A stretch of DNA of 64,000 bases from a virus (IMGVR_UViG_3300028591_000113:46087-110086), one strand, 5' to 3'; numbered from the stretch's first letter, positions 24,532-61,444 are shown. Made by a program: numbers and translations. The notes: generated from the sequence alone by a model not told the origin.

Positions 24532-24906
24532 ATGAGTGAAATTATACCTGTTGCTAAACAGAGCCCTCGTATTAAGAGTGGTGTTATCTATTGATACGTT
24601 GGAGACGCCTTCGATATTGATTGAGATATTCATTTAACAGAAGACGAAAAAGCCATCGTATTCCAACCAGGTGATAAGTTGATCTGGAACTTTTTTTCAA
24701 CTACGGATAAAAATAAGCCAGTTCATTCTTTTACTTTTGAATTTCCTGACATTGAAGATAACACAGTAACATTAAAGTTCACCAAGGAAGTCAGCAAAAA
24801 GTTTGCTATCGGTAGTTATACTTACTGCATCAAATTTGAATGCCATGATGGACGCGTTGTTACATTAAATGCTCAAAATAAACTTCAAGTAGAAGCATGT
24901 CACTAA
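24532..24906 (+). CDS. hypothetical structural-module protein (124 aa, 2 TGA-Trp)
   Basis: GGAGGT RBS; ORF intact only with TGA=Trp. Confidence 0.5.
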
Positions 24907-25496
24907 AAAATTCAATGGTCGGTGAGTTACCTAATATTAAGATAACTTCCACCGCAGATATTACTGATGAGACAATACACTCTGAAGCAACAATAAATCC
25001 ATTAGGAGTGGAAAGTTCTCCAAATATCAGTAAAGGTATTCACCCAAATACAGGTGAAGCAAGTGACCACGCTAAATTAGAACATTTAGACTATGAACAT
25101 AGCGGTCACACAGGATTTGCTAGTAGCGAAGACTTAGTAATTATCGCGCGAGCAGATGCACCACTTGGCGCATTTACACAAGAAGTAGTTAATAAATTAA
25201 GAAACAACTTCAGTGCCAATATTGAACTAAACAATCGCTTGCTCACTCTAAGCAGTAGAGCAGGAAATCAATGAACTTATACTAGCTCACCAGACGAAGG
25301 CGGCACAATGTATGTTATGACCGTCAATATGTTAAATGGTAGTTATCAAAGTTCAGCAATAAACCCAGCAAGAAGTGAATTAAATGCTCACGTACAAAAT
25401 ACAGATGTCCACATACAGGCTGGGGAAAGAAAATCTTGGAATGACAAGGTTTCTGCAAAAGTCATTGTGGACGAAGAAAAACTTAAGTTTTTCTAG
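24897..25496 (+). CDS. hypothetical protein (199 aa, 1 TGA-Trp)
   Basis: ORF continuous through TGA at 25271. Confidence 0.5.
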
Positions 25497-25509
25497 GAGA
25501 GGTTAAAAT

Positions 25510-26721
25510 ATGCCAACTAATTATATTAGCAAAATTGAAATCGATGGCGTTGAGTATGAGATTAAGGATACTGTTGCTCGTCAAGGTGGCATTAAATTCA
25601 TTTTATCAACTAACGCCGCAACTACACCTATTGGTGTTCAATGGAAGAGCGGAGACGTCGTTATTACAGGTACTCTTGCTGCCGCAGATGCAGATAAAAC
25701 TGCTTTCTATTTAGTCCCATTAGAGGACCCAGAAACATCTAACAACTATCGTGAATATATCGCCGCAAACACTGGCTCTGGCTATGTTTGGGAATGTTTA
25801 GGAACAACATCAATTGACCTTTCAGATGTCGTTACAAACGTTACATTACAAAAAGGTTTAGGAGATAAAGTATTAGGTGTTGATACGCCATTTACAAATT
25901 CTTCTTCTGCTGTTTCTTTCAACGGCGGAGCAAGTGACACATTCGTTAAATCATACCCAGGCACAAAAAGTAAACTTGAAACAACACAAATTAAAGGTGT
26001 TGGTGCGGACGAAACTGTTAATGTAGTTAAAACCGCAACATCGAAGACAGCAACAAATACGGTTTTTGGAACTGCGACAGAAGCAAGTAAGATTACTACT
26101 GAAAATAAAACTGCTACAAATACAACCTTTGGTACTGATGAAACAGTTAATAAGGTTAGCGCTGGAACCGCAGTCGATGTCGCAACTACAGATACCCCGG
26201 TTACACAAGTTATGACTGGTGATATTAGTGAAGTCTTTACAAATGCGACAGTAGAAAATGAAGTATTAAGATTTACTAAATCTGTTGTCACCAAAAAGTC
26301 TATTACACCTGCGAAAGCAAACGGTTCTATTACTCCGGTTAACATCGGCGCGCAAGTTACAGTCCCACAAGTCGAAAGCAATAGCCAAGTTAATGTTTCA
26401 AGCGTTAAAACCAATGATAGCGTTACTGTTCCAGTCGTTCAAAGCAATGAACAAGTCACTTCAACTGAAGTTATTACTGAATCTAAGACTCTTGCAACAA
26501 GTGCGGCTTCATCTACAGTCGTTGCTACTGGTTCATTAGATGCCAATGATACTACTGGTGCTGAAGTTATGACAGGTCTTGGTAATGCGCAAACAGGAAC
26601 TGCGATTACTGATGTTGGTACTGCTACAGCGGCTGCACAAACAATTACAGTCGGTGATACTGACCAAGTTGATGTTGCCAAATACAACGACTTATCACTT
26701 ACAGTTACTAAGGGTAATTAA
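25510..26721 (+). CDS. Thr/Val/Ser-rich repetitive virion structural protein (fibre/major structural candidate)
   Basis: 403-aa ORF, GGAGAGG RBS, repetitive T/V/S composition, followed by terminator 26733-26766. Confidence 0.6.
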   Translation: MPTNYISKIEIDGVEYEIKDTVARQGGIKFILSTNAATTPIGVQWKSGDVVITGTLAAADADKTAFYLVPLEDPETSNNYREYIAANTGSGYVWECLGTTSIDLSDVVTNVTLQKGLGDKVLGVDTPFTNSSSAVSFNGGASDTFVKSYPGTKSKLETTQIKGVGADETVNVVKTATSKTATNTVFGTATEASKITTENKTATNTTFGTDETVNKVSAGTAVDVATTDTPVTQVMTGDISEVFTNATVENEVLRFTKSVVTKKSITPAKANGSITPVNIGAQVTVPQVESNSQVNVSSVKTNDSVTVPVVQSNEQVTSTEVITESKTLATSAASSTVVATGSLDANDTTGAEVMTGLGNAQTGTAITDVGTATAAAQTITVGDTDQVDVAKYNDLSLTVTKGN

Positions 26722-26830
26722 TAGAAAAACTAATAAGTCCAAACTAAGGTTTGGACTTTTATTTTGGAAAAACTTGCTTTTCTAATTTCTGTCTTTTATA
26801 CTATTTATGTATGTATACGGAGGTATAATT

Positions 26831-58728: not shown

Positions 58729-58812
58729 AAAGGACTAGTTGCTAGTTCTTTTTTATTTTTGTATAAGCCAAACCAAAATGGTATACTATTAAAAATAAGG
58801 AGAAAAATTTAA

Positions 58813-60666
58813 TGAACATTTATCTAGCTGGTCCAATATTCACCTATGGTGATTTATTACGCAATACTGAATGAGCAAAGAAAATTCGTGATGCGTTTCC
58901 AGGAGTTAACCTTTATTCACCAGTAGAGAACACAGATATTAATGGTATTGAAGGCAAGAAAAAGTTTGCTGGCTCACAAGAAATTGCGCGAGCAGACAAT
59001 CAAAGATTAAACTATACAGATATTTTAATCGCTTGTATCGATGGTGATGTATTACCATCAGGAACTTGCGCTGAAATTGGTAAGTTCCATGAAAAAATTG
59101 AACGTGGAGACCATAAATACATTATTGGTATCTGCACCGATAATCGTCAATGCTTTTATACTCATAGTGAAGCTAAGGACGCCGGTGGCGCCGCATCACT
59201 TGGTGAACAGCAATATAGTTATCAAAATTTGTATGTCACAGGTTTAATTAAACAATATGGTGTATTAGTTTACACTATTGAAGAAGTCATTGACTTTATT
59301 AAAACAATTGCCGATGAGTTTCAGTATATAACTAACTTTAATACGAAACACGGAAAGGAAGATATTCATGAATAATTTAATTTATGACATTCGCGATTGT
59401 CCGCGCAAATGGTATGAATGAATTGTATTCGCACTACAACAAGTTCTTGCTGTTTTCGTTGCAACGGTCCTCATCGCAAATATTTGCGGAACACCTATTA
59501 GTTCGTGCTTACTTGGCGCGGCATTGGGTACATTAATTTACCAAGTAATTACAAAATTCCGTTCACCAATGTTTATTTCTAGTTGCGGTGCAACGGTTAG
59601 TGCAGTTTGTGGCGCGCTATCTCTTAATGCCGCTGGAAACAACTACTTAATGGTTTTCTGTGGTGGCCTAATTATCTTAGCCATCTATGCACTATTCGCG
59701 CTTATCGTTAAACTTACAGGAGTTAAGACTATTACTAAAATCTTTCCTCCAACAATTATTGGTGCGGTTACAATCGTTATCGGCTTAAATCTTGCCAAAT
59801 TCTTAGTTTCCTATTTAGGACAAGGTGGCGTAGATTTTAATCCTACTTCACCAGAAGCAATATTAATGATAATTTGCGCATTAGTTACTATGTTTACTAC
59901 TGCTGCGGTTTCACATTATGGTAAAGGCTTTATTAAGAATATTCCATTCTTATTTGGTTTACTTGCGGGTTATTTATTAGCATTAGTGCTTACATTGACT
60001 GGCGCCGCAAAACTTATTGACTTTAGTCCATTCCAACACATGACTTGGTATCCAGACTTAGTGTTCTTAAAATGGTCTGCTAGTGACTGGTCTTGGGCTA
60101 ATTTTGGTAAAACAGTTCTATTCTTTGTTCCTGTTGCAATTTGCGCATTACTTGAACACTATAGTGACCATAAAGTCTTGTCTAATATTATCGGCACTGA
60201 TTTAACTGAAAAACCAGGCTTACACAGAACACTTCTTGGTGATGGTGTTGCTTCTGCTTTAGGAACTGCAGTTTGTGGTTTACCAAATACAAGTTATGGT
60301 GAATCTATTGCAACTACTGGTTTTAGTAGAGTCGCATCTGTTTGGGTTATTACTGCGGCGGCGGCATTCCTTGGATTGTTAAGTTTTATTGGTCCTGTTG
60401 GCGCAGCAATTCAAACCATTCCTGCTTGTGTATTTGGCGGATGTGCGATGATTTTATACGGCTTTATTGCTGCTAGTGGTTTAAAAACACTTATTACTAA
60501 TAAAGTCGATTTAGAGAATAATAAAAATTTAATTGTAGTAAGTGTAGTTTTGACCGTTGGTGTTAGTGGAGTCATCTTCTTAGACGCTGCATTTGGTGGC
60601 GTTGCGCTTGCTATGGTTCTAGGCGTTATACTTAACTTAATTTTAAGAGAGAAAAAAGAGGCTTAA
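58813..60666 (+). CDS. nucleoside 2-deoxyribosyltransferase domain (58813-59367) continuous in frame with NCS2 uracil/xanthine permease (59368-60666); fusion or missing stop
   Basis: NDT motif MNIYLAGPIF and catalytic SGTCAEIG; no stop before permease ATG (which has its own GGAAAGGAAG RBS); permease TM pattern GATVSAVCG...; terminator 60650-60686. Confidence 0.55.
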
Positions 60667-60715
60667 TGCCTCTTTTCTTTTTGACTAATGGTGTTTTTTA
60701 TTATATATTTATTAT

Positions 60716-61444
60716 ATGAAATTAAAGAAAGTAATAGGAATAGTAAGTTGATTACCAGATAACGAAACTAGAGATACAAGATTCAAAGATCTTTGTAATC
60801 TTTTAACACAAATTAATGAGCTATGACCAAATATGCCAATTCTTATTTATGCACAAAATTGGAATAAAGATAATAAAACATACATTATCTTAAATTATTC
60901 CAATATCACTATTCATGCGGTTGACGGTCGTCCAGGTATATTAAAAGCTCGTAAAACTTTACGTAAACTCTTATTGGCTACCGATAATGATTACTTTATC
61001 TTATTTGATGATGATGCGGTTATCGAAACCACACCTGAGGCGGCGGCACAATTTATTACATTAATGGATGAACATCCGCATGGTTGGGCTTTCTCTGAAC
61101 ATTTTTTACCAGGACAAAAGCCTGCTCGTTTAAATCCATTTGCGCATTCACAATTAAATTTATGTTGTTTGAGTAGATATATTTTTGAAAAAGAGGATTT
61201 TCCAAATTTTAATCCAGAAAAAAGCGAAGGTTTCGAGGATCGTATCTTTTCGATGACGCTTTTATGTAAATATCCTGAATTACAATATAAACTACCGTAT
61301 GACATTTATTGTAAACATTTCAGAAGTGGTAATCCATCAACATGGTCACGTGCAAAAAAGTATGACTGAAATCATATTCGTAAAAACACAGAAATTATCG
61401 AAGAAGGTCTCATAAACCTCTATAAGCGTAAAAAATCTCAATAA
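60716..61444 (+). CDS. GT-A-fold glycosyltransferase-like protein (DxD: FILFDDDAV), 3 TGA-Trp
   Basis: Frame intact with TGA=Trp (242 aa); DDD motif after beta-strand. Confidence 0.45.

Follow-up and report, generated by a model that had tools for sequence, protein, structure and literature searches.

We analysed a 64,000-nucleotide stretch of viral DNA (IMGVR_UViG_3300028591_000113:46087-110086; hereafter the window) in which TGA serves as a tryptophan codon in part of the genes and which encodes its own UGA-reading tRNA, tRNA(UCA). TGA stands for Trp and is not used as a stop codon, the tRNA(UCA) carries the acceptor identity of a tRNA-Trp, and the use of TGA differs between genes in a non-random manner. 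Our preferred explanation, which we hold with a probability of about 0.8, is that the window comes from a large phage of virulent type, probably of the Agate lineage, that reads UGA as Trp and never as stop. Such a phage would supply its own tRNA(UCA); its TGA-free genes could be translated by a standard-code host, and its TGA-containing genes only after the suppressor has built up. Recoding of this kind has already been published, and the window is an example of it.

TGA as a tryptophan codon

Open reading frames (ORFs) were listed with TGA as a sense codon, in-frame TGA and TGG codons were counted, and starts were corrected by Shine-Dalgarno matches. This procedure gave 69 genes in total, 23 of them at 2947-23349 and 45 from 24532 onward; TGA/TGG pairs such as 9/0 are in-frame counts per gene. 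When TGA is allowed as sense, coverage of the region from 24.5 to 64 kb by ORFs of at least 100 amino acids rises from 0.693 to 0.917, and that of the segment from 42.9 to 52.4 kb from 0.407 to 0.981. In the control with TAG as sense, coverage of the 24.5-64 kb region reached only 0.727. The TGA-using region spans 24532-61444 (+ strand): 25 of the 45 genes beyond 24.5 kb contain one or more in-frame TGAs, as do 26 of the 69 overall (38%), in agreement with the initial annotation, which had counted at least 25 frames that are intact only with TGA as sense. Its statement that no gene ends in TGA also holds, the 69 stop codons being TAA (58) or TAG (11). The 104 in-frame TGAs of the window are spread evenly along the genes (mean relative position, 0.51), as for a sense codon, and Pfam domains run across them in the glycosyltransferase family 8 (GT8), Stealth, UvrD and DUF1919 genes.

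By sequence comparison, TGA is Trp (code 4) and not Gly (code 25), because paralogues, orthologues, broad homologues and glycogenin structures all agree on Trp. Among the five GT8 and two GT4 paralogues, TGA in one copy stands opposite TGG in another at conserved columns (S-W-K/R, KPW and TTDWGAF). It had been proposed that the GT8 TGAs fall on tryptophans that are invariant in glycogenin; in the solved glycogenin structures TGA does coincide with the W of HCWSLTQ, and the KPW column pairs TGA with TGG in the paralogues. For the orthologue comparison we used five related public loci (L001, L137, L048, L143 and L022). The partners of TGA were TGG (23 cases), TGA (11), Phe (6), Tyr (2), Thr (2) and five residues seen once each; Ser occurred once only and Gly not at all. 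TGG codons have the same spectrum of partners as TGA codons.

Homologue searches were carried out with X in place of each TGA. What TGA means is seen most clearly in the DUF1919 gene (37456-38064, + strand; Pfam, 136.6 bits; 5 TGA): 50 of 50 homologues have W at residue 108, and W, F or Y predominate at its four remaining TGA positions. In the Stealth (CR2) gene (57790-58728, + strand; Pfam; 6 TGA; orthologue in L001), 83 of 120 homologues have W at residue 65 and 36 have F. At the TGA columns, Gly never exceeds 6 of 51 residues in DUF1919 or 3 of 120 in Stealth. The proposed test of which residue aligns with TGA thus returned Trp, or another aromatic residue, in GT8, Stealth and DUF1919, and the assignment to Trp rather than Gly stands. 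The recoding extends to a 127,076-bp relative: translated with table 11, its L001 gene does not give the database protein, and this relative therefore also needs code 4.

A tRNA(UCA) with a second anticodon-like arm

The initial annotation had suggested looking for a tRNA-Trp(UCA), and one is present at 42843-42939 (+ strand; 97 nt; ARAGORN cloverleaf; 58.9 bits to the Rfam tRNA model). Its acceptor stem, AGGGG...CCCCU-G, has the pairs A1-U72, G2-C71, G3-C70, G4-C69 and G5-C68 followed by G73, with a 7/5 acceptor/T branch. This set is the full acceptor-stem Trp identity for the tRNA-Trp of E. coli and B. subtilis (PMC9976931). The anticodon identity of tRNA-Trp, C34 C35 A36, is replaced by U34 C35 A36 in an anticodon loop CUUCAAA, and the CCA triplet of the Trp anticodon is confined to the loop of an extra arm (stem, CCGU/GCGG; loop, GUCCAAA), which is a copy of the CCA anticodon loop of tRNA-Trp. 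The 3' CCA is encoded. The anticodon arm itself equals that of a phage tRNA-Trp with C34 changed to U, and tRNA(UCA) is, judged by these features, derived from tRNA-Trp. Folding of the single sequence was uninformative (z = -0.19); the support for the structure is comparative.

A first scan of IMG/VR, with the 17-nt anticodon arm alone as the query, yielded four true tRNA-Sec-like sequences, four canonical tRNA(UCA) genes of 75-76 nt and 15 distinct relatives of the window tRNA of 93-97 nt. In an alignment of 16 sequences, the extra helix lies between the anticodon arm and the T arm and shows compensatory changes in five of five pairs, with 92% of cells paired. The covariation of the whole structure was reached by 0 of 500 shuffles, and RNAalifold independently predicts the same five-helix structure. 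The extra-arm loop reads NUCCAAA, and its U, C, C, A and A do not vary. The same loop forms the anticodon loop of tRNA-Trp(CCA), being CUCCAAA in six other phage tRNA-Trp genes and in the canonical tRNA-Trp(CCA) of the window (11738-11812, + strand; CTCCAAA in the DNA). A normal variable loop of 4-5 nt follows the extra arm. With a conserved extra helix between anticodon arm and T arm, these molecules resemble class II tRNAs, apart from a loop of 7 nt instead of the usual 3-5 nt. The molecule looks like a tRNA-Trp with a tandem duplication of the anticodon arm, in which the 5' copy would have mutated to UCA and the 3' copy kept CCA.

A second scan required UCA and TCCAAA and left both stems free, such that the motif was imposed by the pattern and its hairpin context was not. 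It found 48 distinct two-armed tRNAs with 33 different extra-arm stems, on contigs of up to 279 kb; 3.71 of 4 stem positions are paired, compared with 1.6-1.9 in shifted controls. The idea that tRNA(UCA) always lies apart from the tRNA array was rejected, as it is located beside tRNA-Trp(CCA) inside the array in six other phages. Two large phage contigs with a two-armed tRNA(UCA) have transfer-messenger RNA genes inside their tRNA arrays (L016 987-1411 and L084 6634-7007). Code 4 strongly raises the ORF coverage of several two-armed-tRNA loci (in one example from 0.57 to 0.94). Many of these loci are tRNA arrays or early blocks, and their gain relative to other loci was not significant. No two-armed amber (CUA) suppressor was seen among the loci examined, where five of five tRNA(CUA) genes have normal length.

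A parallel design exists for isoleucine. Locus L142 encodes a 91-nt tRNA-Ile(UAU) at 370-460 with the extra-arm loop CAGAUAA, and a scan for this design gave 41 distinct tRNA-Ile(UAU) genes, which are about 90 nt long and have A73 (L142 and loci L148-L261). Their extra loop, YAGAUAA, corresponds to the Ile anticodon GAU plus A37 and A38. The family has 21 different stems, in which 3.12 of 4 positions are paired compared with 1.0-1.5 in shifted controls; among seven phage tRNA-Ile(UAU) genes sampled without selection, one had the extra arm. The Trp and Ile families are alike in that the wobble base is now U34 and the codon is one that the host either assigns otherwise or reads by a specially modified tRNA.

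IleRS uses the anticodon as an identity element. The same is true of TrpRS (PMC9976931). We tentatively propose, at somewhat less than even odds, that these sequences represent an undescribed class of phage tRNAs with two anticodon-type arms, in which the U34 arm would read UGA (as Trp) or AUA (as Ile) and the second arm would keep a copy of the cognate loop as an identity element for host TrpRS or IleRS. The extra arm would supply the cognate anticodon, so that the host enzyme could still charge a tRNA whose real anticodon is poorly recognised, and the phage could change its code without a synthetase of its own. Since the first arm has the canonical junction to the D stem and the second the canonical variable loop, the sequence alone fits either arm in the anticodon position, whether on the synthetase or on the ribosome. 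A precedent is the thrS mRNA operator of E. coli, in which an aminoacyl-tRNA synthetase binds a mimic of an anticodon stem-loop away from its usual position. We found no description of two-armed tRNAs with a cognate anticodon copy in the literature, but most subscription journals were outside our search and an earlier description is possible.

We found no TrpRS or release-factor gene in the window, and no TrpRS-like gene in the 457 kb around the 48 two-armed tRNA genes, although the latter result covers flanks only and is weak evidence. At L006 4427-5533, on a viral contig of 166 kb, a TGA-free class I W/Y synthetase gene (TrpRS-like; 220 bits to PF00579) lies 117 nt downstream of a canonical 76-nt tRNA(UCA) with A73, an arrangement of the kind seen in the code change module of Jade phages.

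Partition of the genes by TGA use

The TGA-free block at 2947-23349 (+ strand) consists of 23 small genes, mostly of unknown function, with TAA or TAG stops. These genes contain 0 TGA and 85 TGG codons, compared with 103 TGA and 107 TGG in the 45 later genes (Fisher p = 2.7e-20); the early genes at about 3-23 kb are indeed TGG-only, as had been stated. The later region is itself over-dispersed in TGA/TGG use (chi2 = 96.6, 41 degrees of freedom; reached by 0 of 20,000 simulations), and seven of its genes with at least three Trp codons have no TGA, compared with 1.1 expected. The bimodal split described initially therefore separates the early block from the rest, but beyond 24.5 kb the choice goes gene by gene and not by blocks. 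The TGA-free genes that alternate there with TGA-using ones include those for an ATP-dependent DNA ligase (35587-36600, + strand; 0/7), PhoH, an SPFH protein, a metallophosphatase, a galactokinase-like protein, RNase H (54646-55122, + strand; 0/5) and a GyrB-type topoisomerase subunit (61912-63852, + strand; 0/5). The last is the topoisomerase already described as TGG-only. In the ligase frame, the sole TGA lies upstream of the real start at 35587. GyrB stays TGA-free in relatives L001 and L143, the ligase in L048 and RNase H in L001. One early example needs correction: the protein at 21193-21801, named as a phosphatase with 11 Trp, has no phosphatase match, and the early metallophosphatase is the gene at 5649-6434 (+ strand; Pfam; 10 TGG).

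Two perfect-consensus sigma-70-like promoters (TTGACA-17-TATAAT; consensus match only) are located at 41547-41575 and 41669-41697 (+ strand), about 1.2 kb upstream of tRNA(UCA). The interval from them to the tRNA contains just a GIY-YIG endonuclease gene, which has TGA, and two small ORFs free of TGA. No terminator-like site was predicted from these promoters to tRNA(UCA), nor from tRNA(UCA) to the GT8 array. Given the consensus promoters and the lack of a predicted terminator, tRNA(UCA) probably heads the most TGA-rich operon. The most TGA-rich stretch (42964-53471, mostly + strand) contains the five GT8 and two GT4 genes, a gene for a 648-residue protein, a membrane protein gene and the galactokinase-like gene. 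The share of TGA drops along the operon, from 9/0 in GT8 paralogue 1 (the same counts as originally given) through 8/2, 8/3, 6/7 and 6/5 in the other GT8 genes to 2/2 and 1/8 in the GT4 genes. The 648-residue protein has 15/3, with 15 TGAs in place of the roughly 20 first reported; on the - strand, the membrane protein has 7/1 and the galactokinase-like gene is TGA-free. In the syntenic relatives L137 and L048 this stretch is missing: the GIY-YIG gene and tRNA(UCA) are followed by an exonuclease-like gene, RNase H and UvrD, and L137 has only a Stealth-like segment where the GT8/GT4 island sits in the window. By this comparison, 42964-53471 is a variable island written in the phage's own codon dialect. 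Genes elsewhere in the window that are possibly related to glycosylation are those for DUF1919 and Stealth and a 242-residue gene at 60716-61444.

In the scheme we favour, an unmodified standard-code host would translate the 20-kb block of small genes and the TGA-free replication genes (ligase and GyrB). The window does hold a gene subset compatible with the standard code, consisting of the block 2947-23349, which is translatable under the standard code and under code 4 alike, and the ligase, GyrB, PhoH and RNase H genes. The TGA-containing genes would yield complete proteins only after the build-up of the suppressor tRNA and its charging with Trp, presumably by the TrpRS of a host that would itself use the standard code, and the division into TGA-free and TGA-using genes may act as a translational timing gate. 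Regulated recoding of a subset of genes had been one of two explanations offered at the outset. Recoding of a subset fits the data and the published model, whereas its regulation in time is something we infer.

Several observations weigh against this scheme. Within the window, we found nothing that counters host release factor 2 (RF2), and the nucleotide that follows TGA is not biased toward weak termination. Both parts of the window have strong sigma-70-like promoters; the promoter scan does not separate early from late genes, and its counts are near the shuffled expectation. The TGA-using genes include functions that are usually early, namely UvrD (55636-56952, + strand; 3 TGA, 0 TGG), dUTPase and the exonuclease-like gene; as UvrD illustrates, TGA is not confined to structural or lysis genes. 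The large TGA-rich proteins of 648, 536, 485 and 403 residues have no match in PHROGs or Pfam, where no large TGA-rich unknown protein could be identified as structural. TGA status also varies among distant relatives, RNase H having 0/5 here and 4/2 in L137, and UvrD 3/0 here and 0/2 in L048. Finally, the related contigs fall into bins of 'Bacilli bacterium' and Clostridia metagenome-assembled genomes (MAGs), yet are phage-like themselves. An attempt to find the host from permease matches failed, the 'bacterial' matches being phage contigs binned into MAGs.

The pattern may also have no timing function at all. AT mutation pressure would turn tolerated TGG into TGA, and only genes expressed before the suppressor would stay clean, through passive constraint and drift. 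We consider this explanation possible but distinctly less likely than the timing gate. In keeping with it, the third-position GC content, which alone declines between gene classes, is lowest in TGA-using genes (0.213, compared with 0.250 in later and 0.295 in early TGA-free genes). TGA use does not track functional class, and TGA and TGG interchange freely among relatives, in which RNase H and UvrD change status. The absence of TGA from 85 Trp codons over 23 consecutive genes and the conserved TGA-free state of GyrB and ligase show selection instead, and the over-dispersion of the later region would be hard to obtain by drift alone. Drift and timing share the same core mechanism and differ only on whether the pattern is adaptive.

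It is improbable that the host itself uses code 4, as a member of the Mycoplasmatales or of an uncultured Bacilli lineage, and that the phage merely follows it, the TGA-free block having some other cause. The bins named 'Bacilli bacterium' could be taken to suggest this, since the GTDB class Bacilli includes the code-4 Mycoplasmatales, and tRNA(UCA) could be one more member of a nearly complete phage tRNA set. The MAG contigs are phage, however, and tRNA(UCA) lies 20 kb from the tRNA array. Moreover, the window has a SipW-like peptidase (weak match), a c-di-GMP-I riboswitch and a ROOL RNA, which are features of walled Bacillota and not of Mollicutes. In 23 genes none of the 85 Trp codons is TGA and only 38% of all genes use it, whereas in phages of recoded hosts the recoded share of genes is about 90% (Borges et al., bioRxiv 10.1101/2021.08.26.457843).

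The other explanation offered initially, a mosaic genome with a TGA-using block acquired from a UGA = Trp lineage such as Mollicutes or their phages, is very improbable and did not withstand the comparison. The most TGA-rich 10.5 kb is indeed a variable island missing from L137 and L048, and along the window the GC content declines from roughly 0.38 to roughly 0.30. Against this, relative synonymous codon usage correlates with r = 0.95-0.97 among early TGA-free, later TGA-free and TGA-using genes, and the two kinds of gene alternate at the scale of single genes. TGA and TGG are exchanged in situ between orthologues in both directions, and this includes the core syntenic UvrD, Stealth and dUTPase genes, which use TGA too.

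Last, we dismiss the notion that TGA encodes Gly, Sec or Ser: ARAGORN labels the tRNA as tRNA-SeC because of its length, and the long extra arm and G73 are serine identity elements that make it resemble a SerRS substrate (PMC9976931), but among the orthologue partners of TGA Gly is absent and Ser occurs once, Gly is rare at the TGA columns of DUF1919 and Stealth, 38% of genes are recoded where about 90% would be expected under code 25, the 7/5 branch with A1-U72 differs from the 8/5 branch of bacterial tRNA-Sec, and more than 100 TGAs in 26 genes are incompatible with Sec insertion that depends on a selenocysteine insertion sequence.

Genomic context and known systems

The window has 35.6% GC, and nearly all of its genes are on the + strand. 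It encodes PhoH, dUTPase, ATP-dependent ligase, RNase H and a UvrD-type helicase, together with the GyrB-type subunit, the GIY-YIG endonuclease, a nucleoside 2-deoxyribosyltransferase and many small proteins without known function. From this gene set, the window is clearly part of a large phage, despite the lack of DNA-level relatives in GenBank: a near-identity DNA search of GenBank phages found no likeness to the window beyond short tRNA matches. No terminase gene was found within the 64 kb. The first 2900 nucleotides have a higher GC content (0.41), only one plausible gene (2240-2668, with 1 TGA) and no Rfam match.

ARAGORN finds 33 tRNA genes, 32 of which form an array at 8297-20948 (+ strand; also found with Rfam) interleaved with TGA-free genes; tRNA(UCA) stands alone. 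Two weak tRNA-like elements at 8211-8295 and 20340-20429 were missed by the ARAGORN default settings. One resembles tRNA-Tyr(GTA) and shares 89-97% identity with DNA of Enterococcus phages of about 150 kb, and the other is a 32-bit match to the Rfam tRNA model. The TGA-free block also contains a HAD RNA-repair-type domain (16147-16662, + strand; Pfam) and near-consensus sigma-70 promoters at 3581, 7304, 14880, 17053 and 17457 on the + strand. A cassette is repeated in this block at 13070-13101 and 15818-15850, with a similar one at 4087-4115: a GC-rich hairpin (AGGTGGACT...) with a T-tail leads into an extended -10 box, TTTTTTGTTATAAT, which resembles a joint terminator and promoter. A full-length ROOL RNA (23707-24300, + strand; 196 bits, gathering score 99) lies precisely where the TGA-free block gives way to the first TGA-using gene, flanked by a near-consensus promoter (23549-23577) and a terminator-like hairpin (24429-24448).

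A c-di-GMP-I riboswitch (28772-28847, + strand; 58.8 bits) lies upstream of an operon with genes at 28870-31168, which encode a signal-peptide protein, a weak match to SipW-like signal peptidases and a second signal-peptide protein. The initial annotation had listed SipW among the TGA-dependent genes; its identity is only a weak match, at 44.8 bits and under the family cut-off. A xanthine/uracil-family permease gene (59368-60666; 206 bits) adjoins the nucleoside 2-deoxyribosyltransferase gene, and related phage contigs from Bacilli and Clostridia MAG bins keep the pair.

Stop-codon recoding has been described in gut phages whose predicted hosts are standard-code Firmicutes and Bacteroidetes, with suppressor tRNAs encoded by the phages and with TGA and TAG lost as stops before recoding; 26%-71% of genes are recoded, and replication genes are often in the standard code (Borges et al., bioRxiv 10.1101/2021.08.26.457843). 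The timing-gate interpretation is also theirs, and is a proposal as regards code-4 phages. Their Agate phages (about 127 kb, from animal and human gut) share with the window TGA = Trp, a TGA suppressor tRNA of their own, the disuse of TGA as a stop, a low GC content, replication genes in the standard code and TGA in other modules scattered along the genome. Contigs related to the window measure 127,076 bp (L001) and 127,110 bp (L031) and, on the basis of these sizes and the shared recoding pattern, the window probably belongs to the Agate lineage; its GIY-YIG gene has TGA. It differs from Agate phages in that TGA also occurs in UvrD, dUTPase and a large glycosyltransferase island, not just in structural and lysis genes. 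The Agate paper gives no structure of the suppressor tRNA (bioRxiv 10.1101/2021.08.26.457843).

In the Jade code change module, which comprises tRNA(UCA), TrpRS and release factor 1 (RF1), a tRNA-Trp(UCA) likewise puts Trp at UGA, and the module is TGA-free and directly upstream of recoded genes (Borges et al.; Seki et al.). A phage TrpRS was reported in two Jade genomes only (Borges et al.). Trp was inserted at UGA by 13 of 13 phage tRNA(UCA)s in E. coli extract (Seki et al. 2025, bioRxiv 10.1101/2025.10.30.685624). Unlike the Jade module, the window has no TrpRS or RF1 that we could find, and its tRNA has G73 and an extra CCA arm. L006, with its canonical tRNA(UCA) and its own synthetase, is of the Jade type. 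The crAss-like and Lak phages, which infect standard-code hosts, also reassign a stop codon in later genes by means of a phage suppressor tRNA, but theirs is TAG to Gln, another codon and another amino acid (Ivanova 2014; PMC9523058). The metaproteomic validation by Peters et al. (2022, PMC9523058) concerned TAG-to-Gln (code 15) only.

Mycoplasma and Spiroplasma, like the window, read UGA as Trp via a tRNA-Trp(UCA). There the reassignment is genome-wide and RF2 has been lost, whereas 62% of the genes in the window avoid TGA and the tRNA has an extra arm. Cellular tRNA-Trp(UCA) is of canonical length. Class II tRNAs (Leu, Ser, bacterial Tyr and Sec) share the position of the extra helix with the two-armed tRNAs, which are distinguished by an anticodon-sized 7-nt loop containing the cognate anticodon (CCA for Trp, GAU for Ile) and by U34 in the real anticodon.

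For the annotation of such phages, the consequence is that gene calling needs code 4: table 11 misses about a quarter of the later region (ORF coverage of 0.69 compared with 0.92), and the glycosyltransferase island nearly vanishes. The window cleanly illustrates the published idea of a phage dividing up its genes by genetic code. What is new is the conserved copy of the Trp anticodon arm and its Ile counterpart, which give a directly testable biochemical hypothesis. If the two-armed tRNA works as proposed, a phage would be able to reassign a codon with the host synthetase alone, and nature would offer a case in which a tRNA identity element has moved from the anticodon to another arm. The same arrangement might then serve as a design principle for suppressor or codon-reassigning tRNAs charged by endogenous, anticodon-dependent synthetases.

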